DNA from: Candidatus Velamenicoccus archaeovorus
GTDB lineage: Bacteria > Omnitrophota > Gorgyraeia > Velamenicoccales > Velamenicoccaceae
Direction: 5' to 3'
NCBI RefSeq assembly: GCF_004102945.1
Contig: NZ_CP019384.1
Location: forward strand, 1 to 32,000
Length of the DNA: 32,000 bases
Shown: piece by piece, positions 7,002 through 27,107 of the stretch
Position numbering within the stretch: the first letter of the stretch is position 1
How the letters are laid out: each line of letters starts with the position of its first letter
Made by a program: the position numbers and the translations under genes
Notes under the pieces: model-generated
What the model saw: only the letters and a program-made list of their open reading frames with translations
Databases searched by the model: none
Told to the model about the DNA's origin: nothing

Positions 7002-7054
7002 AACGGCGCAGACTTCGGGGTAATTTCCACACAAAAGGTGCAGAGGGGAAATTA

Positions 7055-9502
<2,448 letters not shown>

Positions 9503-9745: not shown

Positions 9746-9823
9746 GGCCCCATCGTCTAGCCTGGTCCAGGACGTGTGGTTCTCAGCCATAAGACACCGG
9801 TTCAAATCCGGTTGGGGCTACCA
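9746..9823 (+). tRNA. tRNA-Glu (anticodon CUC) with encoded CCA
   Basis: Hand-folded cloverleaf. Acceptor GGCCCCA/TGGGGCT. D-arm GTCT..AGGAC, typical of tRNA-Glu. Anticodon stem TGTGG/CCATA with loop TTCTCAG (anticodon CTC). T-arm ACCGG-TTCAAAT-CCGGT. Discriminator A followed by CCA. Confidence 0.85.
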
Positions 9824-9922
9824 GATTTAGCACCGGTTTCCCCGAACCAGACCAAGCGCTTCACAAAAAGCGTTTCGCGCTCGGTTCGGGGCCCATTCGG
9901 CCAGACGATTTGCGTCGCCCGC

Positions 9923-9967
9923 GGCCCCATAAGTTGTGGCCTTATGGGAATCCGGTTGGGGTTGCCA
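9923..9967 (+). other. 45-nt tRNA-Glu-derived mini-copy (possible att-site scar or tRNA-like minihelix)
   Basis: GGCCCCAT matches the tRNA 5' end (8/8). AATCCGGTTGGGGtTgCCAGtTTT (9949-9972) matches tRNA positions 9805-9828 at 21/24. The interior is replaced by the hairpin CCATAAG-ttgtggc-CTTATGG. Confidence 0.6.
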
Positions 9968-10072
9968 GTTTTCATCTGGTAACCATTTCTCCTCACAGTG
10001 CCTAGCCTATCCGCAGCTATTTTTTACTTGTTTCCCAAGATGAGGCGTGTTAGACTAATATAGTTTACATAC

Positions 10073-10135
10073 GTTAACAACGGAACATTAGTTAACTTTT
10101 GTTAACCAAGGTTAATTTAGTTAACATGTGTTAAT
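10073..10135. promoter_or_regulatory. Array of six GTTAAC/GTTAAT palindromic half-sites upstream of the HTH gene (candidate operator)
   Basis: GTTAAC at 10073, 10091, 10101 and 10120. GTTAAT at 10111 and 10130. The last five are spaced 9-10 bp apart, about one helical turn. The array ends ~30 nt before the ATG at 10168. Confidence 0.55.
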
Positions 10136-10167
10136 GTTGTCTTCATAACTTATTTAAGGGGTGAAAG

Positions 10168-10437
10168 ATGGAGGAGAAAGAATACTTTAGCATAGCTCAG
10201 GCGGCAAAGATATTAAAAATAAGCAGGATAGCTGTTTACAAAAAAGTAAAAAAGGGACAACTGCCAGCCATAAGAATCGGTAAGATTTATGCGGTTCCGA
10301 AAGAGGACATTATACGGAAGGTAAGAGGAATTAAGGGGCGTTCTTTGAAACCAGAAGAAAAAGCCAAAATAAAAATGGCCGTAAATAAAACGTTAAGAGA
10401 ATATGGGGATGTGTTAAAGAGGCTGGGAGAAGAGTAG
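10168..10437 (+). CDS. Excisionase/MerR-type helix-turn-helix DNA-binding protein (putative antitoxin/regulator)
   Basis: 89 aa. FSIAQAAKILKISRIAVYKKVKKGQLPAIRIGKIYAVPKEDI matches the HTH_17 excisionase-family pattern. Its stop overlaps the downstream GTG start (TAGTG), suggesting translational coupling. GGGGTGAAAG RBS. Confidence 0.8.
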   Translation: MEEKEYFSIAQAAKILKISRIAVYKKVKKGQLPAIRIGKIYAVPKEDIIRKVRGIKGRSLKPEEKAKIKMAVNKTLREYGDVLKRLGEE

Positions 10438-10859
10438 TGCATAGAATTACAATCAAAGAAGTTGAGGAGATAGCATTTCTTATCGCTCAAGAGAAGTTTT
10501 CTTTTAATGAGTCAATACCTGCTTTTACGACGAGGTTCCCTAGCGTTTTGGAAAGTTGCCTCGAAACCCCTTTTCAGACCTTCGACGGAAAGGAGCTTTA
10601 TCCTACCTTTGCTGCAAAACTTAGTATGCTGTTTTATTTAATGAACAAAAATCATCCCTTTCAAAATGGCAATAAAAGAATAGCTATGACGACGCTGTTT
10701 TTTGCTTTGTATGAAGCGAAAAAATGGATAAAGGTGGATACGCAAACCCTCTATAATTTTGCAGTATGGGTAGCTGAAAGTCCGCCAAACGCAAAAGAGG
10801 AAGTGACGGAGTACATAGAGAAATTTATAAAAACTCACATGGCTCCTCTTCAAGAGTAA
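10437..10859 (+). CDS. doc: Doc / Fic-family death-on-curing toxin
   Basis: 140 aa. Contains the Fic/Doc active-site motif HPFQNGNKRIAM (H-x-F-x-[DN]-[AG]-N-K-R). Size and position behind a small DNA-binding protein fit a type II TA module. Confidence 0.85.
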   Translation: MHRITIKEVEEIAFLIAQEKFSFNESIPAFTTRFPSVLESCLETPFQTFDGKELYPTFAAKLSMLFYLMNKNHPFQNGNKRIAMTTLFFALYEAKKWIKVDTQTLYNFAVWVAESPPNAKEEVTEYIEKFIKTHMAPLQE

Positions 10860-11238
10860 ATTGGGGTATTATATAGAAACGCTGATGATTTTGGCTGGGG
10901 TTGGATTTTTATTGATTTGCGCAGAGACTTGTGTTATAAAATATCTAAATAACATCAGGTATTTTATAACTTCTTATTCATGAAGGTGTTTTAAAAACCA
11001 TGTGGCGTCTGTCTTGGCCTGCCCCGCCTTCGGCAGGGCAAGGCCGGACAGGCAGGTCCGACTGTTTGGCCCGTCGCCAGAGGCGACGAGGTCTCACTTT
11101 CAGCGGACGCGGCCGCGAGGTCGCCGTTGCGGCGAATAAGCCGCAACACGTTTAGCGACGCCCGCCGAGAGGGTGAGGCGGGCCGAGGTCGAAGCGTTTC
11201 CTTGCTTTTTTATTGAGGTTAAGCGAGACGGAACGTGT

Positions 11239-11292
11239 CGGCCCGGTGGCACGGAAGTGCCGAAGACAAAGTTTAGGTGTCGAGAAAAAAGG
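11239..11292 (+). repeat. 54-bp perfect direct repeat, copy 1
   Basis: cggcccggtggcacggaagtgccgaagacaaagtttaggtgtcgagaaaaaagg is identical to 11346-11399. It contains the hairpin GGCAC-ggaa-GTGCC. Confidence 0.95.
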
Positions 11293-11345
11293 GCGCCGGT
11301 CGGACGAATAAGTCCGACTGTTTGGCGCGGCCGCGAGAAGGTGAG

Positions 11346-11399
11346 CGGCCCGGTGGCACGGAAGTGCCGAAGACAAAGTTTAGGTGTCGAGAAAAAAGG
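11346..11399 (+). repeat. 54-bp perfect direct repeat, copy 2 (forms the leader and RBS of the parvulin gene)
   Basis: Identical to 11239-11292. It runs into AAGGAG, 6 nt upstream of the ATG at 11408. Confidence 0.95.
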
Positions 11400-14946: not shown

Positions 14947-17169
14947 ATGGCAGACAATACTCCTACTCCTGCTCCCGCTGCTCCTGCGCCCAACCTGGGC
15001 AACATCATCACCATCTTCAGCACCAAGGGGGGTGTCGGCAAGACGCTTTTGGCGGTCAACCTCGCGATCGCCCTCGCCCAGGAAGGCAAGCGCGTGGCCC
15101 TGTTGGATATGGACCTCCAGGCGGTCCAGGACATGGCGCGCATGATCGACGCCACCCCCCAGTATTCCATATTCGACATTGTCTCCATCCTTGAGAAGAT
15201 CGAGCAGGCGGGCAACATCAAGAATTATATGACCCTCGTCAGCTCCGCCGGCATTGATTTTCTTCCGGCCATCACCCGGCCCAAACAGTCGCCGCACATC
15301 ACCGGCGAGCGCATCGGCAAGATTGTTTCGATGCTGACGCCGTTCTATGATTTTATCATCGTGGACGGCGGCCGCGCCTTTACGGACAGCCTCATCCATA
15401 TCTTCAACCGTTCGAACCTGATCCTTTTTATCGTGACGCCGGACATCCTCTCGGTGTACGAGACGCGCTGGGGGCTGGATGTGTTGCAGTCCCTGCACTT
15501 CCCGCTCAAGATGATCAAGCTCCTTTTGAATCGTGCGGAGAGCAAGTCCGGTCTCTCATGGCAGGAAGTCAAGCTTGCGCTCCCCTGCGAGATCATCGCC
15601 AGCGTTCCGTCGGACGGACGCGTCGTCGGCCTGGCCTTGAACCGCGGCGTCCCGGTCGTCATTGACAGTCCCGCCAGCCGCGTCAGCGTCGGAATCAAAA
15701 AATTCGCCCAGGAGCTGATCGCCAACCAGTCCCTTTATATTGCTCACAAGGAGGTCCAGGACCTGCGTTCCATCAAAAAAGAAGAGGTGCCCGTCGCCGG
15801 CACCTTCTGGGATATGATGGGGCTTTCGGACAAGGTCAAGTGGGTCAAGCCCATCGAACAGGAAGACGAGATCCTCCGTCTCAAAAGACGCATCCATGCG
15901 CGCCTGATCGAAGAACTTGACTTGAAGCGCCTGGACATGGAATTGATCAATAATCCTAAGAAGGCCAAGGAGCTGAGGGAAAAAGCGGAAAAGATCATCA
16001 CCAATCTTCTGGCGGACGAGACAGGCGCTTTTCTTTCGAGCCTCGAGGTCAGGGAAAAGCTGGTCAAAGAGCTCGCCGATGAAGCCCTCGGCTTGGGGCC
16101 TCTGGAGGAACTTCTGCGGGACGGGGATATTTCCGACATCATGGTGAACAACAAGGACCAGGTGTATATCGAAAAACACGGGCGTGTCGAGTTGACGAGC
16201 AAGAAGTTTATTTCCGACGACCAGGTGAAGGTCGTCATCGAGCGCATCATCGCGCCCCTGGGCCGGCGCATCGACGAATCCGTGCCTATGGTGGATGCGC
16301 GTCTTCCCGACGGCTCGCGTGTCAACGCGATCATCCCGCCGTTGTCTTTGACGGGTCCGACCCTGACGATCAGAAAGTTCGCGCGCGAACATTTCACGAT
16401 CGAAGATCTCATCGCGCGTTTCGGGAGCCTGGACCGCGACATCGCGGATTTCCTGGCTGCCTGTGTTCTTTCCAGAAAGAACATCATCGTTTCGGGCGGA
16501 ACAGGTTCCGGGAAAACGACATTTCTCAACATCCTCTCCGATTTTATTCCCTCGAACGAGCGCATCGTCACTATCGAAGACGCAGCGGAATTGAAGCTGA
16601 ACCAGGAGCATTGGGTGCGCCTGGAATCCAGGCCTCCCAACATCGAAGGCAAGGGCGCTATCTCGATCCGCGACCTTTTCCGTAACTGCCTGCGTATGCG
16701 GCCCGACCGGATCGTCATCGGCGAGTGCCGCGGCGGCGAGGCGCTAGACATGCTCCAGGCCATGAATACGGGCCATGACGGTTCCTTGACGACCATCCAC
16801 GCCAATTCCACCCGCGATGTGCTGACCCGTCTGGATTCCATGATCCTGATGAGCGGCGTGGAGCTTCCCATCCGCGCCATCCGCGAGATGACGGCCTCCG
16901 CCATCGATATCGTCATCCAGACAGCCAGGTTGTCCGACGGGACCAGAAAGATCACGCAGGTGACGGAGGTTGCCGGCATGGACGATGAGCTCCATATCAG
17001 GTTTGCCGACATTTTCCAGTTCAAACAGTTGTCGATCGACCGGGACACGGGAAAGGTCATCGGCGAATTCACGGCCACGGGGAACCTCCCCAGTTTTTAC
17101 GAAGAGCTCATCACCCGCGGCATCCATCTCTCCTCAGATATCTTCCAGGTGAAGAATATTCAGAAATGA
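14947..17169 (+). CDS. cpaF: Fused CpaE/TadZ-like ParA/MinD ATPase and CpaF/TadA secretion ATPase
   Basis: 740 aa in one frame. The N-terminal ~270 aa carry the deviant Walker A IFSTKGGVGKTLLAVNLA of MinD/ParA/CpaE. The C-terminal ~450 aa carry LGPLEELLRDGDISDIMVN, Walker A VSGGTGSGKTTFLN, IVTIEDAAEL and RPDRIVIGECRGGEA, as in CpaF/TadA (T2SSE family). Confidence 0.9.
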   Translation: MADNTPTPAPAAPAPNLGNIITIFSTKGGVGKTLLAVNLAIALAQEGKRVALLDMDLQAVQDMARMIDATPQYSIFDIVSILEKIEQAGNIKNYMTLVSSAGIDFLPAITRPKQSPHITGERIGKIVSMLTPFYDFIIVDGGRAFTDSLIHIFNRSNLILFIVTPDILSVYETRWGLDVLQSLHFPLKMIKLLLNRAESKSGLSWQEVKLALPCEIIASVPSDGRVVGLALNRGVPVVIDSPASRVSVGIKKFAQELIANQSLYIAHKEVQDLRSIKKEEVPVAGTFWDMMGLSDKVKWVKPIEQEDEILRLKRRIHARLIEELDLKRLDMELINNPKKAKELREKAEKIITNLLADETGAFLSSLEVREKLVKELADEALGLGPLEELLRDGDISDIMVNNKDQVYIEKHGRVELTSKKFISDDQVKVVIERIIAPLGRRIDESVPMVDARLPDGSRVNAIIPPLSLTGPTLTIRKFAREHFTIEDLIARFGSLDRDIADFLAACVLSRKNIIVSGGTGSGKTTFLNILSDFIPSNERIVTIEDAAELKLNQEHWVRLESRPPNIEGKGAISIRDLFRNCLRMRPDRIVIGECRGGEALDMLQAMNTGHDGSLTTIHANSTRDVLTRLDSMILMSGVELPIRAIREMTASAIDIVIQTARLSDGTRKITQVTEVAGMDDELHIRFADIFQFKQLSIDRDTGKVIGEFTATGNLPSFYEELITRGIHLSSDIFQVKNIQK

Positions 17170-17495
17170 AGCTTGGGAGATCCGCCGTCAAACCTTGCGC
17201 GTCGCGGTCTCTTGAAGCGCCCCCAGAATCCGTTGTTTATCCCGGCTCGTTCCTGCCTTCCGAGCGAGAAAACTCCCCCTCTCGCGTCTTTCCATGCAGC
17301 CCCTGTCTTTCTATTTGTTGCGCCTCCGTGTCCGGGGTATCTTTCCGGACATAGCCGCCCCGTGGCGACCAATCCGCAGAGAAGGGTTGACGGGGATGGC
17401 AAAAGATCTCTGTCTGCGCAACATTTTCTTACCTCCTTTTGTTTGAACAAGTCCTCGCGCCAGCCGCTTGTTTTCCAGTAGATACCAATAACGGC

Positions 17496-17525
17496 TTGCC
17501 TGACCAAGTCGTCATTTGATATAAT
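17496..17525 (+). promoter_or_regulatory. Candidate sigma70-type promoter with extended -10 inside the non-coding spacer
   Basis: TTGCCT (17496-17501), an 18-nt spacer, then TG-a-TATAAT (TG 17517-17518, TATAAT 17520-17525). Confidence 0.4.
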
Positions 17526-17740
17526 GCTGCGAGCTTCTGTCCGGATGAGGCCAGGATTTTTCTTGGTCGGTTTGGATATCAAAAAGACCAAAAACTCTCA
17601 GGTTCTGCTGGAATGAGCGCCGGGTTTGGCAGATGGTCGCCACAACCCGGCCAAGCCAGGTTTTCAAGGAGGCAGGGCCGGTTGTACCAAAAATGGGCCT
17701 GGTGTTAAGGAGTCACCCCGCCAGAGGCACTCGTGGAGCC

Positions 17741-18166
17741 CCACGGCTTTACAGCCGTGGCCCCTTTTCCTGCCGGGCTTCCGCCGTGGGGCGGAATCCC
17801 GCCCGAATGCCATTCATCCTCACCTTGACAGGTGGGGCATTCTGGGTGCGGGGTAAAATTAACCTGGCCTGCCCAAGGCAGGCCGAGCAAGCTGCCGCAG
17901 AAAGCGGCACACCGCCACAGAAGGTGGCGCACTTGCCGTCCGAATGAGGCAAGGTGCGGCCCATCTGCCTCAGAAAGGTGGCATACCCGCCATTCCGGTT
18001 TGGCGGGGTGCGATGAGGCCGGGTGATCGGAGCCATCCCGCCAGAGGCGGAAAGCCACTAAAAACAGACTCCTTGCTTAAACGCTTGTTAATTTTACTCG
18101 TATACGCCAGAGGCACTCGTAAAATTAATGTCGCAAGCTTCGGAGTCATCCCGCCAGAGGCGGGAT
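17741..18166. repeat. Dense array of at least nine short GC-rich hairpins (candidate structured RNA or REP-like array)
   Basis: Perfect stems: 17741-17760 (8 bp), 17779-17796 (7 bp), 17866-17884 (8 bp), 17893-17909 (6 bp, loop AGAAA), 17913-17929 (6 bp, loop AGAAG), 17932-17953 (6 bp), 17986-18007 (7 bp), 18038-18050 (5 bp, loop AGA) and 18148-18166 (8 bp, loop AGA). No convincing ORF on either strand. Confidence 0.75.
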
Positions 18167-18178
18167 GAGGAGGGACAA

Positions 18179-18544
18179 ATGGCCGCAGAGGCCTTGTACA
18201 AGGCAATCGTTCAAGAATCCGGGAAGATGCTGGCAGACAAGATTACTATCGCCGATTCATTTGGCGCCAGGGCCAAAGGGCTTCTTGGAAAAATTGGGCT
18301 GGAGGATGGTCGGGGCCTTCTGATCAGGCCGTGTAGCTCTATACACATGTTTTTCATGAAATTCCCAATAGATGTCCTATTTCTGGCAAAAGATGGTAGA
18401 ATTATCAAGATAGTTAAAGGATTGAAGCCGTGGAGACTAAGCGGATGTTGGTTTGGGTGTCATATGGTTTTAGAGCTTAAAGAAGGAGTTTTAGATATTA
18501 ACGAAGATTTTGATAAAAAACACATAAAATTCGTCAAAATATAA
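18179..18544 (+). CDS. DUF192 (COG1430-like) domain protein
   Basis: ORF 18128-18544. I prefer the ATG at 18179 (GAGGAGGG at 18167-18174). The pattern ADSFGARAKGLLG...GLLIRPCSSIHMFFMKFPIDVLFLAKDGRIIKI...MVLELKEG matches DUF192. Confidence 0.72.
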   Translation: MAAEALYKAIVQESGKMLADKITIADSFGARAKGLLGKIGLEDGRGLLIRPCSSIHMFFMKFPIDVLFLAKDGRIIKIVKGLKPWRLSGCWFGCHMVLELKEGVLDINEDFDKKHIKFVKI

Positions 18545-18605
18545 TGTCCAATATATAAAATCATTTTCTATAACACAATGCAAAACATTAAATAACAGAA
18601 AATAA

Positions 18606-20177
18606 ATGTCCAAATTAGCTAAATTCAACCAAAATATCAAACGATTTATATTGGAGACTCGAAAGAGAAACTCTGATTATGGAGTTCGAAAGCTCGCTGA
18701 TCTTGCTTTTGGAAAGTTTGGAGTGAAAATCAGCAAATCAACTGTTAATAATATTGTCAAAAATGCCAAATTGAGCAAGCCGGTCGGCCGCAGTATATTG
18801 AAAACTTATAGATACTCCGGGGATTTGTACGGCGCAGGGTATGTTTTTTTTGTAGGCGCCATGCGTCTTTTGGGCATAGGGGACAAAGTTGCGGCCATTA
18901 CGTCGGAAATGGGGCTCTGTAAAGAGATCAGGCCGGAAACAATCCCGTCTCTTGTCGAAGGCTGGCTTCTGTCCAAGGCGGTTTATAATGTGCCTCTTGA
19001 AAAAATTGCAGGGTATTCAAAAAAAGAGCTATGGGATATCATAGGCTACAAAATTTCAAAGGCAAATTTTGAGACTTTTCTTGCCCATTTTGAATTCTCG
19101 CAAGATATTGGAAATAAATTAGTTATGTATTTTTTAAATTCCATAAAGGACGTCAGTTTTATTAAATTTACCCTTTCGGATGGAGGCGTTTTTCATGTTG
19201 ACGCAAAAGGTTGCTATGTCTGGACCGCCAAAAAGACCCCAGTTAATTTTTCTTCAAATCTTTTATTTTTAGATAGTTATATAAATTCTTTCGTGGAAGG
19301 AAATGAACCCTTCTTTGTCCTAAACGCTAATCCGGAGGGTAGTACTCAAGCTAAAGAGCTCCAGGATTTTATTCTGGCCATGGAAGGTTCTGTTGCTGAA
19401 AAGAGGATCCGCAGAATTGATCTTTTTGGTCCCGATGGACGGCCTTGCCGTGAAATTTCGTTCGTCCTGCCCCTCCGCAGAAGGTTTGTGATTGGTGCTT
19501 CTCCGGCTTCAGATACGGAGAAAATAACGGCCCCCGCCCCTAAAAGTTTCGAGTCCAATTTTATCTGTGAGCCTTTGGGCAAGCTGTTTTTTGTCTCAGA
19601 GGAAAGTCATAAAGTATCACAACATATTGGAAATAAAGATGTTATGATAAGAAAAATCCATCTTAAATCGTCAGATCCTTCTTTGAGGATTTCGCTTTTG
19701 ACGAATCTTGATCCCAAGGATTGGACCGCGGTTGAAATAGCCGAGGGTTATCTGCGGAGATTCGGAAATTTCCAAGAATACTTATTGCGGGCTTCTGAGT
19801 GGGCAAAAAATCCTGGGTATGCAGATGAATTTGTGTCTGCCGATCGCTTTTTGGCGCATTCTTTGAGGCTGAAAGAGTCGAAAGATGCCGAGCATTTATT
19901 CGCCTGTCTCGTCGAGGTTTGCGATCTTTTCGCTAAAATGAGCTTCCTGCCCCCTTTGTGCAGACAGTGGAGTTTGTTGAAAACCAGGGAGTTGATTTAT
20001 AAGCAACCCGGTGCTGTGCAGAGGGACACGGCCTGCGATGTTTTATTTAACATATTGAAAACAAAAGAGTTAGAGAAAATACGTGTTTTAGAGCACGCTT
20101 CGCTCATATTTAACAGCCTCCCTGTGAATGAACGATCCGGCCGCAAGTTGTGGATTTTTCTGACAGCCGCAGTTTGA
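18606..20177 (+). CDS. Hypothetical 523-aa protein with N-terminal HTH; possibly transposase-derived
   Basis: Long uninterrupted ORF in a low-GC segment. The N-terminus RKRNSDYGVRKLADLAFGKFGVKISKSTVNNIVKNAKL looks like a transposase-type HTH. The C-terminal WTAVEIAEGYLRRFGNFQEYLL resembles the Y-x2-R-x3-E region of IS4-like DDE transposases, but the E is out of register. No terminal inverted repeats seen. Confidence 0.6.
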   Translation: MSKLAKFNQNIKRFILETRKRNSDYGVRKLADLAFGKFGVKISKSTVNNIVKNAKLSKPVGRSILKTYRYSGDLYGAGYVFFVGAMRLLGIGDKVAAITSEMGLCKEIRPETIPSLVEGWLLSKAVYNVPLEKIAGYSKKELWDIIGYKISKANFETFLAHFEFSQDIGNKLVMYFLNSIKDVSFIKFTLSDGGVFHVDAKGCYVWTAKKTPVNFSSNLLFLDSYINSFVEGNEPFFVLNANPEGSTQAKELQDFILAMEGSVAEKRIRRIDLFGPDGRPCREISFVLPLRRRFVIGASPASDTEKITAPAPKSFESNFICEPLGKLFFVSEESHKVSQHIGNKDVMIRKIHLKSSDPSLRISLLTNLDPKDWTAVEIAEGYLRRFGNFQEYLLRASEWAKNPGYADEFVSADRFLAHSLRLKESKDAEHLFACLVEVCDLFAKMSFLPPLCRQWSLLKTRELIYKQPGAVQRDTACDVLFNILKTKELEKIRVLEHASLIFNSLPVNERSGRKLWIFLTAAV

Positions 20178-20281
20178 ATCCCCTGGAAGTCCCCAGAAAT
20201 TCTCACAGAACTTTTTATGTTACCCCATGTAAAAAACCCAGTTACGTAAGAAAACGCTTTCTTTTTTGGGGTAAAAATTTG

Positions 20282-20311
20282 TTGACATCATTATAATATA
20301 TATGATATAGT
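20282..20311 (+). promoter_or_regulatory. Candidate sigma70-type promoter for the flp gene array
   Basis: TTGACA (20282-20287), an 18-nt spacer, then TG-a-TATAGT (TATAGT 20306-20311), in a very AT-rich stretch ~190 nt upstream of the first flp start. Confidence 0.5.
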
Positions 20312-20429
20312 TTTGGTGCAAGATCGGTATCGAATCGACCACGGAAAAAAGATGAAAAACGCCACGGAAACAAAAAACATTTTTGGGATTTTTTGTCCCT
20401 ATTGGGTCGTTCGGCAGATTTTTCCGGCA

Positions 20430-20489
20430 GCCGAATCGTTCAATGCTGATTTTTTGAAAGAAAAGCATGAGCGATTCGGCAATTTTTTT
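20430..20489 (+). terminator. Leader stem-loop plus T7 tract upstream of flp1 (candidate attenuator)
   Basis: GCCGAATCG (20430-20438) pairs perfectly with CGATTCGGC (20472-20480), with an inner ATGCT/AGCAT stem. It is followed by aaTTTTTTTc (T-run 20483-20489). An upstream TTCGGC (20410-20415) could alternatively pair with GCCGAA (20430-20435). Confidence 0.45.
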
Positions 20490-20501
20490 CTAGGGTTCGT
20501 A

Positions 20502-20750
20502 ATGAGTTTAAAAAAGTTCTTAAAAAGATCCGTTTGGACAATAAGCGGCCAGTCGATCATTGAATATTTCGTCCTGCTGGTTGCGATAGCCGCGTTGACG
20601 ATTGTGGGGAGCTCGGCTTTTTATGCCAAGATGCAGCGCTCATCGGGGTACGTGTTGAATTATTCCGTAGGCCAGATGAAGCAGAGCAATCTCAACACCT
20701 TTTCACTGGGGGGAGTGACTCCCGGCGGATGGACAAACACAACGATTTGA
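20502..20750 (+). CDS. flp: Flp/Fap-type prepilin-like protein, paralog 1
   Basis: 82 aa from the ATG at 20502. Basic leader MSLKKFLKRSVWTIS, then G-QSII-EY and the hydrophobic helix FVLLVAIAALTIVG (the G/x4-EY Flp motif). Confidence 0.8.
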   Translation: MSLKKFLKRSVWTISGQSIIEYFVLLVAIAALTIVGSSAFYAKMQRSSGYVLNYSVGQMKQSNLNTFSLGGVTPGGWTNTTI

Positions 20751-20760
20751 GGGGCGGGAC

Positions 20761-20913
20761 ATGCGTAAACATTGCGGACAATCTGTTCTGGAATATGCCA
20801 TCCTCATCTCGGTGATCTGTGCCGTTTTTGCGACGATGTTTGTTTATACCAAAAATGCGGTCCGCGCCAGATTGTTGATCACCCAGGACCGCCTGAACGA
20901 GGCGGATAAATAG
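20761..20913 (+). CDS. flp: Flp/Fap-type prepilin-like protein, paralog 2
   Basis: 50-aa ORF, too short for the supplied track, translated by hand: MRKHCGQSVLEYAILISVICAVFATMFVYTKNAVRARLLITQDRLNEADK. GAGGGG RBS 6 nt upstream. Carries the Flp motif G-QSVL-EY. Confidence 0.75.
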   Translation: MRKHCGQSVLEYAILISVICAVFATMFVYTKNAVRARLLITQDRLNEADK

Positions 20914-20915
20914 CC

Positions 20916-20932
20916 TGCCGCCTGCGGCGGCA
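20916..20932 (+). terminator. Short GC hairpin after flp2
   Basis: TGCCGCC-tgc-GGCGGCA (7-bp stem), followed by aaggggTTTcc. The U-tract is weak. Confidence 0.3.
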
Positions 20933-20943
20933 AGGGGTTTCCA

Positions 20944-21150
20944 ATGGCCCGTTTATTGAGAGAAGTTTGGAGAGGGAACAAGGCGCAAAGCCTCCTGGAG
21001 TATTCTATCCTGATCGCCGTTGTCGCTGCGGCCTTTGTGACCATGGCCATGTATGTCCGTCAGGCGGTGCAGGGCAAGATCTATCGCATGGAGGACTCTG
21101 TGACGGCAAAATCGAATAAGGGGGCCACGACCTGGAGCGTCCCCGTGTAA
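20944..21150 (+). CDS. flp: Flp/Fap-type prepilin-like protein, paralog 3
   Basis: 68 aa. Leader MARLLREVWRGNK, then A-QSLL-EY and SILIAVVAAAFVTMAMYVRQAVQGK. Ala replaces the usual Gly at the predicted cleavage site. Confidence 0.75.
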   Translation: MARLLREVWRGNKAQSLLEYSILIAVVAAAFVTMAMYVRQAVQGKIYRMEDSVTAKSNKGATTWSVPV

Positions 21151-21166
21151 GGATGATGAGGAGAGG

Positions 21167-21370
21167 ATGATCATGGAGACACGCAGTTGCAAACGACAGA
21201 AAGAACAGGGGCAGATGACCATCGAATACGCCGTGATGTTCGTGGCCATCGTCGCGGTCATCATTTATGCAGCGACGAATTTTATCCAGCCGTCGATGAA
21301 CAGGTTTTTTAACAGCACGTCGCTCATCATCAATAAATCGGTCGAGGAGATCGAGAATAGATTCAGTTGA
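21167..21370 (+). CDS. flp: Flp/Fap-type prepilin-like protein, paralog 4
   Basis: 67 aa. An alternative ATG at 21173 has better spacing from GAGGAG at 21158-21163. Motif KEQG-QMTI-EY followed by AVMFVAIVAVIIYAATNFIQP. Confidence 0.78.
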   Translation: MIMETRSCKRQKEQGQMTIEYAVMFVAIVAVIIYAATNFIQPSMNRFFNSTSLIINKSVEEIENRFS

Positions 21371-21463
21371 TCCCCGTGTCAACAGGGGGTCTCGCCCCGC
21401 AGGGTGGACCAGAGAGGGCCCGCGGGGATCGAAATCCGAAGGAAGGAAGGGGGTGAAAGAGAC

Positions 21464-21715
21464 ATGAGGAAGGTGTTGAGCAAAGTAGGCCAGAGCACGT
21501 TGGAATATGTTATCGTCTTGACAGCGATCGTGGCAGCGATTCTTTTTGCGGCGACACAGTTCATCAAGCCGGGCGTCAACCGTATCTATGACGAGACGGG
21601 CACGAAGTTGAACGATACAGCCAGTGTCTTCGCCAATAAGATCGGGATCAGCCTGAACGCCGTGGGCGGAACGACGGGCGGCACGACGGGCGGCACGACA
21701 GGGGTCGGCGTATAA
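21464..21715 (+). CDS. flp: Flp/Fap-type prepilin-like protein, paralog 5, with (GGTT)3 C-terminal tail
   Basis: 83 aa from the ATG at 21464 (GGAAGGGGGTG upstream). MRKVLSKVG-QSTL-EY followed by VIVLTAIVAAILFAATQFIKP. C-terminus GGTTGGTTGGTTGVGV. Confidence 0.8.
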   Translation: MRKVLSKVGQSTLEYVIVLTAIVAAILFAATQFIKPGVNRIYDETGTKLNDTASVFANKIGISLNAVGGTTGGTTGGTTGVGV

Positions 21716-21757
21716 TCGCGGTCCAACAGATCGCCGCGTTGAAGGAGGTGAAAAAGG

Positions 21758-22114
21758 ATGTTCAGATGGTTGAATTCGAAGAGGGGTCAGAATACGGCTG
21801 AGTACGCGATCCTCATCGGCGTTATCGTGGCGGCTGCTATCGCGATGCAGATCTATATCCGCCGCGGGATGCAGGCCAGGATCAAGGACGCTGTTGATTT
21901 CACGCAAACAGCGGACGACGATGCCGGCAACGGGTTCTTCAGCAACATGACGCAGTACGAACCGTATTATTATCAGACGAACTTTGAGACGAGCCAGAGC
22001 GGAACGCAGTCAGAAGAGCTGCAGTCCGGCGGCGGCGTCATCAGGACGTCTATCACGGACACAACGCAAAGAACCGGGAACCAGACCTATGGCAACTACA
22101 TGGAAGCCAATTAG
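21758..22114 (+). CDS. Long Flp-like prepilin/minor-pilin-like protein, paralog 6
   Basis: 118 aa. AAGGAGGTG RBS. MFRWLNSKRG-QNTA-EY followed by AILIGVIVAAAIAMQIYIRRGMQARIKD, then a polar ~75-aa tail. Confidence 0.8.
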   Translation: MFRWLNSKRGQNTAEYAILIGVIVAAAIAMQIYIRRGMQARIKDAVDFTQTADDDAGNGFFSNMTQYEPYYYQTNFETSQSGTQSEELQSGGGVIRTSITDTTQRTGNQTYGNYMEAN

Positions 22115-22153
22115 GGGTTTCATGTTTTGCGCGCGAAAAGGAGGTGACGTTAC

Positions 22154-22471
22154 ATGCGCAGGTGGTTGAAAGAAAATGGTCAAAGCACCCTCGAGTACGC
22201 GGTTTTAATAGTGGTCATAATTGCCGCCCTTATCGCGATGCAGGTGTACCTGAAGCGCGGTATCCAGGGCAGGATGAGAGAGTCAACTGACCAGATCGGC
22301 GAGCAGTTTTCGCCGGGTTACACCGTTTCAAACAGAACCACCCAGACATACTCCAACAGCCGAGAAGAGAACACCGGTTGGTCGACATCGACGGAAATCT
22401 ACAACCAGTGGCAGAACAGAGCGGGCTGGGAGAATGTGATGAACGCCGAACAGGAATACTGGGGCGTGTAG
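22154..22471 (+). CDS. Long Flp-like prepilin/minor-pilin-like protein, paralog 7
   Basis: 105 aa. AAAGGAGGTG RBS. MRRWLKENG-QSTL-EY followed by AVLIVVIIAALIAMQVYLKRGIQGRMRE. Confidence 0.82.
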   Translation: MRRWLKENGQSTLEYAVLIVVIIAALIAMQVYLKRGIQGRMRESTDQIGEQFSPGYTVSNRTTQTYSNSREENTGWSTSTEIYNQWQNRAGWENVMNAEQEYWGV

Positions 22472-22490
22472 AGAGGATCGGCGGGCATGG

Positions 22491-22518
22491 CCCGTTAGAG
22501 AGATCATTCTCTAACGGG
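22491..22518 (+). terminator. Perfect 11-bp stem-loop between flp7 and flp8
   Basis: CCCGTTAGAGA (22491-22501), loop gatcat, TCTCTAACGGG (22508-22518), followed by cTTTg. Begins 20 nt after the flp7 stop. Confidence 0.5.
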
Positions 22519-22544
22519 CTTTGCCCCGCGAAAGGCAGGATGCG

Positions 22545-22934
22545 ATGGGCGCGAAAAGATCGAACACAACAGCGGGTTTGACGGGCGGGCAAAGGTCTTG
22601 CGCTTTTCCGGCGCTGTCGCGCAGGGGCCAGCAGATTGCAGAGTATGCCCTGGTCATGGCGGCGCTCGCCTCGGCGCTGTTGATGATGTATGTCTATACC
22701 AAGCGTGGGATCCAGTCGACCATCAAGGACCTGACGGACCATGAGATCGGCTGGCAGAACGACAGCGTGCCGATCCTGGCCGCCGGCGTTCATCAGAATA
22801 CGACAGCGGCGATGACGACGAAGGCGCAGGATGCGGTGCGCGTCAGGAAAGACTCCGGGCTCGGGGCCCAGTATGATTTTGCGAGCGCTTCGAGATCGAC
22901 CGGGGAAAGCAACGTGACGTTCAACGAGCTTTAG
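22545..22934 (+). CDS. Long Flp-like prepilin/minor-pilin-like protein, paralog 8
   Basis: ORF opens at TTG 22521; the ATG at 22545 is more plausible. The long leader ends in SRRG-QQIA-EY, followed by ALVMAALASALLMMYVYTKRGIQSTIKD. Confidence 0.75.
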   Translation: MGAKRSNTTAGLTGGQRSCAFPALSRRGQQIAEYALVMAALASALLMMYVYTKRGIQSTIKDLTDHEIGWQNDSVPILAAGVHQNTTAAMTTKAQDAVRVRKDSGLGAQYDFASASRSTGESNVTFNEL

Positions 22935-22936
22935 GG

Positions 22937-23338
22937 ATGGCTGCGATGAGAGACAGACGGCATTTTATTTTATGTTTTTCCGGAGATCCGCTGGGCGCCC
23001 GGCGCGGCCAGACCGTTATCGAGACGGCTGTTTTGGTGACCATCATCATTTTTGCTTTTATCGCGATGCAGGTGTACCTGAAGCGCGGGATCCAGGGCCG
23101 CCTGAGAGGGACGATTGACGGCATCGGCGAACAATATGATCCCGACCAGACGACGTCGGATTACAACCTGGTCCACGAGAGCGACGTGACGACGACCAGC
23201 GAGTCCAGCGAAGAGATGTATGTCGATCCGATGTCGTATTCGGGCCAGTACCAGAACAGGCTCATCACGATGGTGCACGTCGAGACGCACTACGATAATT
23301 CGTTCAAGAACGGCTTTGAATATGTGGGGGCGCCGTAA
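22937..23338 (+). CDS. Long Flp-like prepilin/minor-pilin-like protein, paralog 9 (E-T variant)
   Basis: 133 aa. ARRG-QTVI-ET followed by AVLVTIIIFAFIAMQVYLKRGIQGRLRG. Thr replaces the Tyr of the EY pair. Shares a 38/39-nt tract with paralog 7. Confidence 0.75.
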   Translation: MAAMRDRRHFILCFSGDPLGARRGQTVIETAVLVTIIIFAFIAMQVYLKRGIQGRLRGTIDGIGEQYDPDQTTSDYNLVHESDVTTTSESSEEMYVDPMSYSGQYQNRLITMVHVETHYDNSFKNGFEYVGAP

Positions 23339-23384
23339 TAAAGATAGCGTCGAAGAGTCAAAGTATCAGAGTGTCAAAGATGAG

Positions 23385-24566
23385 ATGGCAGAGGGCAGAA
23401 AACTGAAGGCAGCCATGAAGAGCATGCGGGCATCGGAAAATCGGGGGATCGGGATTTGGGGATCGGGGAACCGGGAATCCGGGCGAAGATCTTGCCGGAC
23501 CCCTCATGCTTTCAAGAAGGGGCAGGCCCTTCTGGAACTCGCGGTCTTCAGCACGATCTTTTTGACGATCCTGACGGCGATCGTGGCCTATGGCCTGCGT
23601 TACAGCTATAACCAGAGGGCGCAGATGCTGGCGTTCCGCCGTGCCATGAAGATCGCCTCGGACAGGAATTACGGCTCAGGCAGTTATATGCTGATCCAGG
23701 ACCGTCATATCCCGGATCCGGCGGAGACCTTTGGCATCGGTTCGACTGCGCCGTTCGTCGGCGTCGCGTCCGTGACCAGGGATCCTGAGATGGATGCACA
23801 GGCTGCGGATGCCTCGTCTTTGCCGGCGACGGTGATCGACATGGAGACGACGGGCGTGGACGGCGCCATGGAGCCTTTGGCCCGCATCGTCGCCAAAAAT
23901 GCCGGCTTCAGGCGCGAGACAGGCGTTTCCGAGGAGATGCTGAAAAAATACGAGCTGATATACAGCGATGTCGTGGATGAAGAGGGCGGCAACGTCCGCA
24001 TCATCGATTCGTGCGTCGGCGAAATGATCAATTTCGATTCCTGTTATTCGCAGGCCGTCAAGATCGTGGACGTGGACACCTGTTACAACTATTGCCTGAT
24101 CACCGTGACACAGGATGAAGACACGAATTGCTCGACGATTTGCAATCAGGCCATGAATCCGCCCAATCAGAACAATACGAGCTATAACTCTGCGGTGGGC
24201 GGGGCGTGGTATGCGGCGAACTGGCGCGTTGAGGACGGCAAGTATGTCTTCCCCGTCTTGAATGAGATCAGTTCGCGCGTCAGCGAACATGCCAAATCTA
24301 TGGGCATACAGCAGGATACCGTGACGCACAGCAAGCGTTCCACGAAGATCCGTAAGATCGAGACGACGTCGAACCTTGTGACCGATGAAAACGCGACGTG
24401 GGAGGATAACAACGTCAGGCAGTTTGTAACGATGAATGCGTTGCAGCCGAACGGCTACCAGGTGACGCATGACAATCCGATGGATTACGCGGACGACGTC
24501 GATAGCCAGGAGATCAACAGCCGCTCCACGGGTACGATCCGCCAGACGATGACGACGCCGAAATGA
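23385..24566 (+). CDS. Large TadE-like pseudopilin-like protein with Cys-rich C-terminal region
   Basis: ORF 23220-24566. The start is uncertain (ATG at 23385, 23415 or 23424). TadE-type N-terminus KKGQALLELAVFSTIFLTILTAIVAYGLRY. The ~330-aa extracellular part contains DSCVGEMINFDSCYSQAVKIVDVDTCYNYCLITVTQDEDTNCSTIC. Confidence 0.7.
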   Translation: MAEGRKLKAAMKSMRASENRGIGIWGSGNRESGRRSCRTPHAFKKGQALLELAVFSTIFLTILTAIVAYGLRYSYNQRAQMLAFRRAMKIASDRNYGSGSYMLIQDRHIPDPAETFGIGSTAPFVGVASVTRDPEMDAQAADASSLPATVIDMETTGVDGAMEPLARIVAKNAGFRRETGVSEEMLKKYELIYSDVVDEEGGNVRIIDSCVGEMINFDSCYSQAVKIVDVDTCYNYCLITVTQDEDTNCSTICNQAMNPPNQNNTSYNSAVGGAWYAANWRVEDGKYVFPVLNEISSRVSEHAKSMGIQQDTVTHSKRSTKIRKIETTSNLVTDENATWEDNNVRQFVTMNALQPNGYQVTHDNPMDYADDVDSQEINSRSTGTIRQTMTTPK

Positions 24567-24572
24567 GCGCAG

Positions 24573-24899
24573 ATGACGCAGATAACAGAGAACACAGAAG
24601 AGAAAACAGTCATGAGGAAAATGTGGAGATCAGGGGGCTGGAGGATGAGCGAAGCAGGGCAGTCGACGCTGGAGATGACGGCGGCGCTGGTCGTTCTGAT
24701 GATCCTGCTTGTGGGCGCCGCGAGGATATTTGTGTGGCTCAACGAACGCATGGCCTGGAGGCAAACGGAATACGAAAATACACGCGTGACTGCTGGGAGC
24801 ACCGCGTTTACCAGTTATGTGGATCTAAACAATGCGGAACACACAAGGGGGGTTGAGATCAATGAGTCGTCTAATCCGCCGCTTAACATCTTTAAATAA
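24573..24899 (+). CDS. Small TadE/TadF-like pseudopilin-like protein
   Basis: ORF 24573-24899, with alternative starts at 24612 and 24645. N-terminal EAGQSTLEMTAALVVLMILLVGAARIFVWL matches the TadE-like pattern. Confidence 0.65.
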   Translation: MTQITENTEEKTVMRKMWRSGGWRMSEAGQSTLEMTAALVVLMILLVGAARIFVWLNERMAWRQTEYENTRVTAGSTAFTSYVDLNNAEHTRGVEINESSNPPLNIFK

Positions 24900-27087
24900 C
24901 CTGGCGCCTCTGGGGAACAAACGGGGGCAGATCGCCACCTTGTTGATCCTGGCGACTGTGGTTCTGCTCATGTTTGCCATGGTGACGCTGAATCTCGGGA
25001 ACGTGGCCATTAATTCCACGGGCGTCTCAAACGCCGCTGATTCGGGCGGCCTCTATCTGGCGTCCCAGCTGGCCACGAAGTCGCGTCAGCTTTATGAATC
25101 TCTCGGAAATACGACGGAAAAATGCCAGAAGACCGGCTGGGCGAGTTTCGTTCTGGCGATCGTTATCGCCATTATCGCCATCGTCGCGGTTGTGATCACG
25201 TGCGGCGCGGCTGCCCCGGGTCTTACCGGCCTTGCAGCGGTTGCCTCGCAGGTGGCAAGTGTCGGCACGACGACGTTGGTGGCCGCAGGAGCCATCGGCG
25301 GCGCTGTCGGGGGCGCCATTGGAGGCGCCATTGCCGGAACAGGAGTTTTGCAGGGGGCGTTGACAGGCGCGGCTGTGGGCGCGGCCCTCGGGTTTGCCGC
25401 GGCCGGCGCCGCAGGGGCTTTAGGCGGGGCAACATCGAGTTCGGGCCTTGGCGCGACGGCTACTAGCGGAAGCGTTGCAGGAGAGGGCGGTGCTGTGATG
25501 ACAGGCCAGGGTATTGCGACAGCGTCCGGGACCATGGCTTTTGAAGCAGGGGCGGCCCTGCCGGCAGGTTCTCAGCTTTTGGCCGGCTCCATTCTTATTC
25601 CTTCTACCGCCGGCCTGGGCACTTTGGCCTTGGGCGCGCTTTCCCTTGCCGCAGCCGGATATAACCAATCGGTACAACAGAGCATGCCGGGGGCCGTGGC
25701 TGAACAATTCACGAAAATGCTCAACAAGATGTCCGAGCCGAACAGGATCCGCGAGTCTGTCTTTATGCAGGCCCTCGAGCTGGTTGTGGACGACCCGACC
25801 AAGTCTTATGATTCGCCGGATTCCAACCTGAACGGCGACACGCTGGAATACGTGCCTGATTTCCAGATATGGCTTTTCAACAGATTCAGGATCATCAACA
25901 GCGTGACCGATTTGATCGATCCGGAACCCGTTGTTTACGATTTCCTTAATAACTATGCCTGGCAGTTCGAAAATGTCTGCAAGCTGGCCAACGAAGGCGG
26001 AATTTATTGGCAGTATGTGACGGGCACGGTCTACGCCGAGGATGTGCCGGGTCCCCTGGAACGCGCGGATTACAAATGGGTCTTGACCCCAGATCCGACG
26101 CCGGAAGACCCGGGCAACATGAAATATGTCGCCGCGGCGGGCCGCGACGGGCATGTGGTCGAGCTCTTGCGCGCCTTGCGCAATGCCGGCTACAGCGTAC
26201 CCTTCTGGAATCCGGGTCCCGACCCCGCGGCCATGAATGAATGGGGCAATCAGTGCAACGGCGACGTCTGCATCGACCCGCCGATCTCCCTGGGATATGA
26301 CGAACTCGACGACATGGCCGATAACCTGATGGAGATGGGCGATTTCATCGGGGCCCTGAGGTCGATGCCGCAGAACGATACGATCGAAGCCTGGAGGGGA
26401 TGGGCCTTTTTCTTCTATGACGAATATGATACCACTAATCCGGCGACATATCTGATGAGAAGTGCGAAATATGAAGAGGAATTGGGGCAATGGATCACGG
26501 CGATCGAGAGCATCAGGACGACCCTGCCGGCCTGCCTTTTCGGAGGTCCGTCGGGAGATACGGTCCTGAATCCTCCCTGTCAGTTCGGCGCCGGCGGCAG
26601 CGTCGATAGCGACATCGATGACGAATTCTATAATGCTTTTTATGACCTGGGCGGCATGCAGTATGAGATGAACTCGTTCCACGGCGCCATCCAGGGATTT
26701 TTCAGCGCCCTCTTCCCTGATGTCGAAGAGGAAGCGTATGACCAGACCTGTGTTCCTCCGGACGAGCTGAATCCCGCGGGAAAACCCTGCGGCGGCAAAA
26801 ATCCGGTGCGGTATGAATGGAAGGATTCGCGCGGCGACCACGAGGTAACGGTCAAGGCGGTGTTCAATGTGCCGCGACTCAGGACTTACAAGACAGGCAA
26901 CTGGTTCAGCGGCAAGGTCTGCGTGCAGCTGCTTTACGGCGCCGAGAATACGCAGGTGATCGTATCGCGCTGGGACAGCTCGAAAGGCATGGGGGCGCTC
27001 GGGACATGGAACCCGTTCGGCGGCCGCGTGACAAAGGCCGCGCGCGCTTATTATAGCTACAACAAAGAAGTGAGATTGGTGAATTAA
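24862..27087 (+). CDS. TadG-like (Tad_N) pilus-associated protein with a long Gly/Ala-rich tract
   Basis: ORF 24832-27087. I prefer the ATG at 24862 (AAGGGGGG at 24845-24852). KRGQIATLLILATVVLLMFAMVTLNLGNVAINSTGVSNAADSGGLYLASQL fits the TadG N-terminal domain. It is followed by a ~180-aa G/A/S/T-rich region and a ~470-aa acidic, aromatic-rich C-terminal domain. Confidence 0.8.
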   Translation: MSRLIRRLTSLNNLAPLGNKRGQIATLLILATVVLLMFAMVTLNLGNVAINSTGVSNAADSGGLYLASQLATKSRQLYESLGNTTEKCQKTGWASFVLAIVIAIIAIVAVVITCGAAAPGLTGLAAVASQVASVGTTTLVAAGAIGGAVGGAIGGAIAGTGVLQGALTGAAVGAALGFAAAGAAGALGGATSSSGLGATATSGSVAGEGGAVMTGQGIATASGTMAFEAGAALPAGSQLLAGSILIPSTAGLGTLALGALSLAAAGYNQSVQQSMPGAVAEQFTKMLNKMSEPNRIRESVFMQALELVVDDPTKSYDSPDSNLNGDTLEYVPDFQIWLFNRFRIINSVTDLIDPEPVVYDFLNNYAWQFENVCKLANEGGIYWQYVTGTVYAEDVPGPLERADYKWVLTPDPTPEDPGNMKYVAAAGRDGHVVELLRALRNAGYSVPFWNPGPDPAAMNEWGNQCNGDVCIDPPISLGYDELDDMADNLMEMGDFIGALRSMPQNDTIEAWRGWAFFFYDEYDTTNPATYLMRSAKYEEELGQWITAIESIRTTLPACLFGGPSGDTVLNPPCQFGAGGSVDSDIDDEFYNAFYDLGGMQYEMNSFHGAIQGFFSALFPDVEEEAYDQTCVPPDELNPAGKPCGGKNPVRYEWKDSRGDHEVTVKAVFNVPRLRTYKTGNWFSGKVCVQLLYGAENTQVIVSRWDSSKGMGALGTWNPFGGRVTKAARAYYSYNKEVRLVN

Positions 27088-27107
27088 TCCAACACGAGGT
27101 GCTGTTT

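Follow-up and report, generated by a model that had tools for sequence, protein, structure and literature searches.

Why should about 1 kb of DNA without a recognisable gene interrupt a pilus gene cluster? The question is raised by the spacer at positions 17170-18178 of the window, the 32,000-nt stretch analysed here (contig NZ_CP019384.1, positions 1 to 32,000). The window is a tight-adherence (Tad) pilus locus of Candidatus Omnitrophota; the close homologues of its CpaE-like/CpaF fusion (CpaE-F) are annotated as Omnitrophota or Omnitrophica. On the plus strand the order is SurA-like, RcpC/CpaB, a secretin with a TonB_C domain, CpaE-F, the spacer, DUF192, a lower-GC block, TadB, and TadC. The genes flanking the spacer end and begin at 17169 and 18179, where the first-pass annotation of this DNA had placed them:

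14947-17169, plus strand: CpaE-like/CpaF fusion, 5' flank of the spacer
18179-18544, plus strand: DUF192, 3' flank of the spacer

The gap is non-coding DNA in which a conserved promoter is followed by a leader that was probably piled up from lineage-specific hairpin repeats and is not a conserved regulatory RNA. Judged from sequence comparison, a pile-up of repeats resembling the repetitive extragenic palindromic (REP) and REPIN elements or the BOX elements, within a real 5' leader, is the best reading and a likely one. That the spacer does not encode protein had been proposed before and is borne out by protein searches. None of its five overlapping open reading frames (ORFs) has a Pfam match at E<=1, and when the spacer was translated in all six frames and compared by tblastn with its syntenic counterparts in three relatives, the only matches were short and of low significance (best E ~0.001 over 11-22 aa). 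ORFs of 102-143 aa on both strands might be taken for the remains of a decayed gene; these ORFs overlap one another and run across a strain-specific block and the repeat modules described below. Such a gene has a negligible probability, and we regard it as ruled out by the Pfam and tblastn results.

A conserved predicted promoter and a leader of variable length

The spacer contains the sole sigma-70-like site in 16900-18700, preceded by a stretch that cannot be aligned with relatives:

17170-17495, no strand assigned: non-conserved non-coding DNA after the CpaE-F stop, unalignable with relatives, identical in L001
17496-17525, plus strand: predicted sigma-70-type promoter, TTGCCT-18-TGaTATAAT, its -10 extended, directed toward DUF192 and the Tad genes that follow

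The -35 and -10 hexamers match at 10 of 12 positions, their 18-nt distance lies within the 16-18 nt of sigma-70 promoters, and a TG stands upstream of TATAAT as in an extended -10. The first-pass annotation had noticed this downstream-facing, promoter-like element; it holds as a sequence match, and it is conserved 5' of DUF192 in relatives. We compared five versions of the spacer between CpaE-F and DUF192, the comparisons resting on metagenome assemblies:

Window: spacer 1009 bp; CpaE-F as reference; 653 nt from -10 to ATG
L001 (GCA_041890195.1): spacer 715 bp; CpaE-F protein identical; ~359 nt from -10 to ATG
L002: spacer 629 bp; CpaE-F 96% identity; 287 nt from -10 to ATG
L003: spacer 314 bp; CpaE-F 91% identity; 142 nt from -10 to ATG
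L004: spacer 333 bp; CpaE-F 88% identity; 39 nt from -10 to ATG

L002 has an identical extended -10 (TTTGATATAATG) and a similar -35 hairpin, and the corresponding promoters of L003 and L004 read TTGGCA-17-TATAAT (11 of 12 positions) and TTGAAT-17-TATAAT (10 of 12). Outside the promoter, nothing aligns among the homologous spacers. The conservation at the orthologous position that marks a cis-regulatory leader or riboswitch is thus confined to the promoter, and leader length varies between 39 and 653 nt. Because the promoter is conserved while its distance to the ATG varies so widely, the promoter appears old and the long leader a recent expansion. The promoter is predicted to serve DUF192 and the downstream pilin-like and Tad genes, which we consider likely as part of the explanation as a whole. 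5' of the DUF192 promoter of L004, at 11000-11180, a long-range pairing of ATAGGGGCCACCAACGATGTCG with CGACATCGTTGGCGGGCCCCTTAT encloses several GC hairpins; this is a structured or mobile element different from that of the window.

The leader is rich in hairpins. Counting stems of at least 5 bp with at least four G/C pairs, we found 10 perfect hairpins in 17526-18178, compared with 2.3 +/- 1.5 in dinucleotide shuffles (maximum 9 in 500) and a mean of 2.2 in coding windows of equal length; the earlier count had been at least nine. For 17530-18185 the fold has a z of -7.4 on the plus strand and -6.6 on the minus strand, whereas the 5' part (17170-17529) reaches z = -1.9 only. Such near-equal stability of both strands is expected from DNA palindromes. 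The last hairpin, which belongs to the H2 family introduced below, had been described as adjoining the DUF192 ribosome-binding site (RBS), and this is confirmed:

18146-18168, plus strand: H2 hairpin tcatcccgcc-AGA-ggcgggatga, 10 bp, fold -18.6 kcal/mol, z -6.3

It stops one base before the Shine-Dalgarno (SD) sequence GGAGGG (18169-18174), which lies 5 nt before the DUF192 ATG and is unpaired in the fold. An intrinsic terminator is a G+C-rich stem-loop with a U-tract directly behind it, and the leader hairpins have no such tract. On the plus strand no terminator-like site occurs in the leader 3' of the promoter, and the nearest match, 17491-17512, overlaps the -35 region.

Comparison with Rfam, which the first-pass annotation had suggested, gave no family for the spacer. 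Rfam 15, run at the gathering score and at permissive E-values on 40+ related loci as well as on the window and its spacer, yielded only tRNA, tmRNA, and a group II intron; nothing credible covers the spacer or the canonical H1-H2 loci at E<=10 or E<=1, and H1, H2, and Z have no match.

The hairpin families H1, H2 and Z

The repeat copy counts given here cover the 32-kb window and the fetched loci and contigs. H1 is a bulged hairpin of 65-105 nt with the layout CCCYYGCCTAAR-CGCTTGTAAATTT-(variable tip)-AAATTTAC-TGCGCAGGCTTCGGG. A strict-pattern search found three copies in the window, one in L002, and 28 metagenome stretches. When 28 copies are aligned, pairing holds in 94% of cells, compared with 28-51% in slid-register controls, and 8 of the 21 pairs have double-sided changes (36 cells versus 11.8 in shuffles). 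The covariance model of H1, named R1, matches the window four times (at 5665, 6799, 6937, and 18068) and detects 38 copies in Omnitrophota-type metagenome loci, the L001 spacer included, and none in 720 kb of unrelated genomes. L141 was assigned to Omnitrophota by its ThrRS, and the other metagenome loci with H1 are referred to as Omnitrophota-type. The H1 pattern has no match in viral contigs, and a phage origin was rejected on this ground. Matches listed from a scan of genome contigs with CCGCCAGAGGCGGA lie mostly in unrelated genomes. The window copies are:

5665-5771, plus strand: diverged H1 copy, R1 28.6 bits, E 3e-6
6799-7021, plus strand: two tandem H1 copies 5' of gyrA (6799-6887 and 6937-7021), R1 67.9 and 61.5 bits
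18068-18146, plus strand: intact H1 module whose tip carries another CGCCAGAGGC, R1 66.8 bits, E 6e-18, fold in agreement with the model

All inspected H1 matches are intergenic or adjoin tRNA or tmRNA genes. Of 25 unique loci, about 10 have a co-directional stop codon 0-15 nt ahead of the start of H1, and 11 are next to tRNA or tmRNA genes. It is an extragenic imperfect hairpin formed by inverted conserved arms, as REP/REPIN elements are. The window copies are all on the plus strand; among the metagenome loci, ~22 run along the flanking genes and ~7 are inverted, L126 has H1 on both strands, and L157 has an adjacent inverted pair (9276-9343, minus; 9362-9427, plus). Canonical copies are followed by a U-rich UAAUUUUG, and the window copies have no U-tract. 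The local density amounts to four H1 copies and seven AGA hairpins (see below) in the window and to four H1 copies per 21.7 kb in L157, with none in L156 and L158.

H1 differs in presence between orthologous sites. R1 finds none in the DUF192 spacers of L002-L004. 5' of gyrA, H1 occurs twice in both the window and L002, and L003 has a 64-bp intergenic region only. In the tRNA-Cys/Leu/Val-thrS region, H1 is inverted between tRNA-Val and thrS in L141, lies between tRNA-Cys and tRNA-Leu in L145, and forms the inverted pair of L157 between the same two genes, with two further copies elsewhere in that contig; it is absent there from L158 and from L156, whose ThrRS is 93% identical to that of L141. 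REP/REPIN-, BOX-, or Correia-type repeats come and go at orthologous sites in this way.

Some H1 loci carry other elements. The tRNA-Val/thrS spacers of L156, L157, and L158, which have no H1, contain another hairpin pair, ATTAAATTTTTC..GAAAAATTTAAT followed by GTACTCAAGCGAGCG...AGCGAGCGGAGTAC, which suggests that further repeat families sit at Omnitrophota gene boundaries. About 100-130 nt 5' of H1, a non-coding stretch with GCGCTAAAATTATGGAACAGAATTTTAGCGCGGCTTATGAGTCGGG is conserved in L130, L131, L137, L146, L148, and L149, and these six look like one orthologous locus. Its ACAGAA...GGCTTAT portion is CR-V-like, but we rejected RNase P RNA, as Rfam gives no match. The L137 contig, with two H1 copies, also has a group II intron D1-D4-6 match at 278-536 (minus strand).

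H2 is the second hairpin that normally follows H1 (RTTAATTTTG...CAAAATTAA). In the genome of the window its core is the AGA hairpin CCGCC-AGA-GGCGG. The core CGCCAGAGGC has seven exact copies in the window, all on the plus strand, against 0.12 expected; four fall within the spacer, and the remaining three are intergenic elsewhere, at 5456, 5635, and 11075. The search for the same modules elsewhere, which had been proposed along with the first-pass annotation, thus found them at other window sites as well as in metagenome loci. AGA/H2 hairpins outside the spacer, listed here together with one inside it, include:

5453-5651, plus strand: two AGA/H2 hairpins (5453-5469 and 5629-5651) 5' of a 273-aa gene, outside the spacer
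11072-11088, plus strand: AGA hairpin variant cgtcgcc-AGA-ggcgacg, a core copy
18036-18052, plus strand: AGA hairpin (H2 type) ccgcc-AGA-ggcgg, an exact core copy

The 3' arm of H2 runs into AAGGAGG-ATG, or ends at the 5' end of a tRNA or tmRNA, or, when inverted, at a tRNA 3' end. H2 follows each of the two H1 copies upstream of gyrA, the last H2 ending at the gyrA ATG, and at this orthologous site the window and L002 differ by compensatory changes. We rejected H2 as a sigma-70 promoter: the spacing of TTGTAA-12-TACAAT is wrong (12 nt), and one of 29 segments matches, compared with 1.3 in shuffles.

Z is a 44-nt double hairpin whose first stem has an AGAAR loop and whose second stem is CACnnGCC...GGCnnGGTG. 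Among the sequences compared, it is seen in the window and L002 only. L002 has one Z at 3571-3614, 5' of gyrA, in a different H1 copy but at the same internal-loop site as the Z block of the spacer. The orthologous window H1 is a clean empty site for this Z, with a 44-nt indel between near-identical flanks. In the spacer, Z is nested three deep. Z1 comprises 17893-17912, 17957-17963, and 18010-18025; Z2 (17913-17956) sits inside the Z1 arm between CAC and CGGCC, and Z3 (17964-18010) inside the Z1 loop.

With these families the leader can be parsed as follows:

17526-17706, plus strand: first leader part, common to L001, with a stable hairpin at 17538-17578; R1 finds no H1
17707-17728, plus strand: truncated AGA hairpin AAGGAGTCACCCCGCCAGAGGC, the junction where the window departs from L001
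17719-18050, plus strand: half cassette, the 3' part of a cassette with its 5' end lost, split by insertions; equivalent to 18105-18163, absent from L001
17733-17852, plus strand: 120-nt insert X, within the half cassette's tip stem, with four perfect hairpins and one longer imperfect stem
17866-17884, plus strand: hairpin Y, ggcctgcc-CAA-ggcaggcc, a perfect hairpin of 8 bp
17893-18025, plus strand: Z block, Z nested three deep, at the H1 internal-loop site

The half cassette holds, in order, CGCCAGAGGCACTC, insert X, GTAAAATTAA, hairpin Y, GCAAGCT, a 133-nt insert, and TCGGAGCCATCCCGCCAGAGGCGG; the 133-nt insert is Z with two further Z copies nested inside. The ordered segments match at 14/14, 10/10, 7/7, and 23/24 bases, and the gapped alignment scores 86.6 compared with 25.7 +/- 5.4 for shuffles. 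Since 17719-18050 repeats all segments of 18105-18163 in order, the spacer comprises 1.5 tandem H1-H2 cassettes. The extra half cassette joins the upstream AGA hairpin at a common CGCCAGAGGC(ACTCGT) repeat, a junction consistent with unequal recombination between short repeats. SD-like remnants, AAGGAGG at ~17656-17662 and TAAGGAG at ~17706-17712, would fit a stepwise stacking of cassettes that each brought its own SD. At 17539-17555 lies GTCCGGATGAGGCCAGG, a remnant of Z from its 3' part.

Alignment with L001 by blastn and a custom gapped procedure resolves the indel. The two spacers are 99.6% identical up to 17728, after which the window has ~320 extra bp, and 8 of the 10 perfect hairpins sit within this block. 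In the last 130 bp the architecture is kept and the sequence is different. Because H1 and H2 differ there by several compensatory changes amid flanks that are 99.6% identical, they were probably swapped for another copy and not point-mutated. The AGA and AGAAR loops on differing stems that had been taken as a covariation-like sign of selected RNA structure are real, but a selected, locus-specific RNA is not supported by them: homologous spacers are unalignable beyond the promoter, and the hairpins with shared loops and different stems are paralogous copies of the dispersed repeats H2 and Z, found also 5' of gyrA and of another window gene. Readings of these loops as a CsrA/Rsm-type sponge, ANTAR, or boxB-like site were dropped: GGA and the signatures of a hexaloop or boxB are missing from the loops, and the hairpins are copies of repeats.

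Weighing the readings of the leader

If the leader is a repeat pile-up, the gap would be a transcription-unit boundary inside the Omnitrophota Tad locus. Transcription would begin at the predicted promoter (17496-17525), and the leader would have been inflated, in the lineage of the window, by the lineage-specific dispersed intergenic repeats H1, H2, and Z. These may have spread through duplication, recombination or gene conversion between copies, and small site-specific insertions. Once transcribed, the repeats should fold as independent stable stem-loops. As the stem-loops have no U-tracts, they should not terminate transcription, and read-through into DUF192 and the pilin-like genes is expected. 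The leader would act at most on mRNA stability or RBS insulation, differing by strain, because its stem-loops are stable without U-tracts and the last hairpin stands directly 5' of a free SD; it would not sense a ligand or signal. Its length and content would vary by strain via recombination between repeat copies and small insertions. Of the roles first proposed for the spacer, a REP-like one comes closest, a structured 5' leader applies in that the hairpins lie within one if the promoter fires, and an independent non-coding RNA finds no support.

Several observations weigh against a pile-up of mobile repeats. The filled-versus-empty comparisons for Z and for H1-H2 revealed no terminal inverted repeats or target-site duplications. 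Across contigs whose flanks are unrelated, H1 is ~90% conserved in its basal stems and internal loops but variable at its tips, and about three quarters of the copies are oriented like neighbouring genes; this conservation and orientation bias suggest a selected function rather than purely selfish spread. The difference between the window and L001 comes from metagenome assemblies, which strain mixing could affect.

These points lead to the strongest rival, that the H1-H2 cassettes are functional RNA-level gene-boundary elements: 3' stabilisers or terminators, processing sites, or SD-presenting 5' hairpins. A dedicated protein would recognise the cassettes, and the Tad leader would merely hold extra copies. 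The constant basal helices and free tips of H1 speak for such a role, as do its position 0-15 nt past co-directional stops and beside tRNA or tmRNA genes, its alignment with flanking genes, the U-rich UAAUUUUG after canonical copies, the exact ending of H2 at SD/ATG or tRNA and tmRNA ends, the compensatory changes in H2 5' of gyrA, and the different hairpin pair that other species hold at the tRNA-Val/thrS position. Against it stand the occurrence of H1 in both orientations relative to its neighbours, its gain or loss between close relatives, the tandem and truncated copies with nested junk in the Tad leader, the missing U-tract of the window copies, and the failure of H2 as a promoter. We consider this role possible, though doubtful as a full account; it overlaps with the repeat pile-up and is compatible with it. 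An independent small RNA gene in the spacer is highly unlikely. H1 is multi-copy and conserved in sequence and structure, as such a gene might be, but it has no dedicated flanking promoter or terminator, directly adjoins stop codons, H2, and SD, persists in truncated and interrupted copies, and matches no Rfam family.

A locus-specific cis-regulatory RNA for the pilus genes (riboswitch, protein-titrating leader, or RNA thermometer) would explain why the leader folds far better than shuffles, with a conserved promoter upstream and a hairpin adjoining the RBS. The comparative data have already largely refuted it: orthologous spacers conserve neither sequence nor length nor structure, 8 of the 10 hairpins are strain-specific, and the same modules occur 5' of gyrA, of another gene, and at tRNAs and tmRNA. 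The SD is not sequestered, Rfam gives no match even at E<=10, and the minus strand folds equally well, as DNA palindromes would. We regard such an RNA as improbable.

The pile-up of repeats in a promoter-driven leader would account for the unusual 1-kb gap among the pilus genes of a nanobacterium that is uncultivated and probably depends on a host. It also yields three repeat families with models and coordinates, usable in Omnitrophota annotation, strain typing, and assembly quality control, and a caution for RNA discovery: paralogous repeat copies with the same loop and other stems mimic the covariation of a selected RNA. If the cassettes do work as RNA, they would reveal a gene-boundary organisation in Omnitrophota.

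A further hairpin element was seen beyond Omnitrophota. A ~30-nt tandem double hairpin, TCCGCCAGAGGCGGA plus NNNGCC-TNN-GGCNNN (often TCCGCCTTCGGCGGA), recurs in metagenome-assembled genomes (MAGs) of many phyla: Patescibacteria/CPR (candidate phyla radiation), Omnitrophota, Kiritimatiellae, Verrucomicrobiota, Ignavibacteria, Gammaproteobacteria, and Dehalococcoidia. Its second stem covaries between copies. At least 24 such hairpin pairs were found by regular expression among the 120 loci listed (including L012, L013, L022, L030, L058, L076, L105, L107, L114, L116, and L120), and Rfam has no match to the element. The window sites for comparison are 5453-5469 and 5629-5651. L013 has two inverted copies with ~55 nt of additional GC hairpins between them. 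In L114 (Campbellbacteria MAG QIJB01000072), a copy at 6865-6893 on the minus strand lies in frame inside pheT, which encodes Pfam B3_4, B5, and FDX-ACB domains; the protein reads MKISYNWLQSYF-SARGGSAFGG-DKLPKPEKLAELL, and BLASTP against Omnitrophota PheT leaves a 10-aa gap exactly at the hairpin-encoded stretch. It is conceivable, but rather unlikely, that H1-H2, Z, and this TCCGCCAGAGGCGGA+TCCGCCTTCGGCGGA element belong to an undescribed system of site-specific copying into hairpin loops, gene boundaries, and in-frame coding sequence, which Omnitrophota co-opted as RNA boundary signals. In that case, strain-to-strain reshuffling of the Tad leader would tune pilus gene expression, and the boundary signals would act on stability, processing, or SD presentation.

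Neighbouring features and known repeat systems

The rest of the window has features of its own. The lower-GC block (18606-27600; 27-45% GC) encodes a 523-aa HTH-like protein, where HTH stands for helix-turn-helix, ~10 small ORFs, and a 741-751-aa protein. Every relative fetched has this block in synteny, and it is hence part of the locus, not an island. Several of the small ORFs probably encode pilins or pseudopilins, given their weak, sub-threshold matches to Flp_Fap, class III signal-peptide, or DUF4244. Directly after TadC and an 88-aa ORF, a giant gene starts at ~29.8 kb and runs past the window end; as called in GCA_041890195.1 it comprises 17,312 aa, and it corresponds to L154 from 12007 onward. 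The gap between gyrA and the SurA-like gene (9503-11383) holds tRNA-Glu (9746-9823) and a Fic/DOC-family ORF (10437-10859), and is 425-517 bp only in L002 and L003. Just 5' of the SurA-like gene, a 54-nt direct repeat, CGGCCCGGTGGCACGGAAGTGCCGAAGACAAAGTTTAGGTGTCGAGAAAAAAGG, has two copies (11239-11292 and 11346-11399), and GTCCGACTGTTTGGC is likewise repeated at ~11057 and ~11313.

Among known systems, REP/REPIN elements and clusters of bacterial interspersed mosaic elements (BIMEs) are described from gamma-proteobacteria (Bertels & Rainey, PMC3116915, PMC3337134; Nunvar et al., PMC2817692), REP typically exceeding 100 copies per genome (PMC2817692). Like REP/REPIN, H1 is an extragenic, multi-copy, long imperfect hairpin with two conserved inverted arms around a variable spacer; it clusters, as BIMEs do, in tandem or mosaic arrays within intergenic DNA predicted to be transcribed, is present or absent between close relatives, and keeps its hairpin by compensatory changes. 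In orientation the likeness may extend to the adjacent inverted pair of L157 and the other inverted copies; the window copies all face one way. Unlike REP, it has no GTAG-type head, its arms are not classical REP palindromes though they contain AAGCGCTT and CTGCGCAG, the ends of H1-H2 adjoin SD or tRNA ends, and phylum and sequence are unrelated. No transposase, whether RAYT, IS200/IS605-type, or other, was identified, no search aimed at one having been made.

The BOX elements of Streptococcus pneumoniae are modular intergenic repeats in the order boxA-boxB(n)-boxC that are co-transcribed with adjacent genes into stable RNA structures. H1-H2 resembles them in module number varying per locus, length varying between strains, stable RNA folds, and predicted co-transcription with its neighbours, and differs in the order H1-H2 with nested Z inserts and in its unrelated sequence and phylum. 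The Correia elements of Neisseria, which are miniature inverted-repeat transposable elements (MITEs), carry terminal inverted repeats of 26 bp and a duplicated TA. The cassettes are likewise ~100-150 bp, close to gene starts or ends, predicted to be transcribed into hairpins, and strain-polymorphic, but have neither terminal inverted repeats nor a target duplication at filled-versus-empty sites, so the MITE definition does not apply. In cyanobacteria, very small hairpin repeats of ~20-45 nt are found inserted in one another and in further repeats, as Z is in Z and H1; Z differs in being a double hairpin and in its apparent preference for the H1 internal loop.

The sections of the Omnitrophota literature covered by a narrow check contain no mention of H1-, H2-, or Z-like elements. 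With the structured 5' leaders and riboswitches of Rfam, the window leader shares its place between promoter and RBS and a highly stable predicted structure, but unlike riboswitches it is not conserved at orthologous loci, and its modules are common to unrelated genes and to tRNA/tmRNA flanks. On sequence grounds, H1, H2, and Z are members of the dispersed structured intergenic repeats, a class already known.

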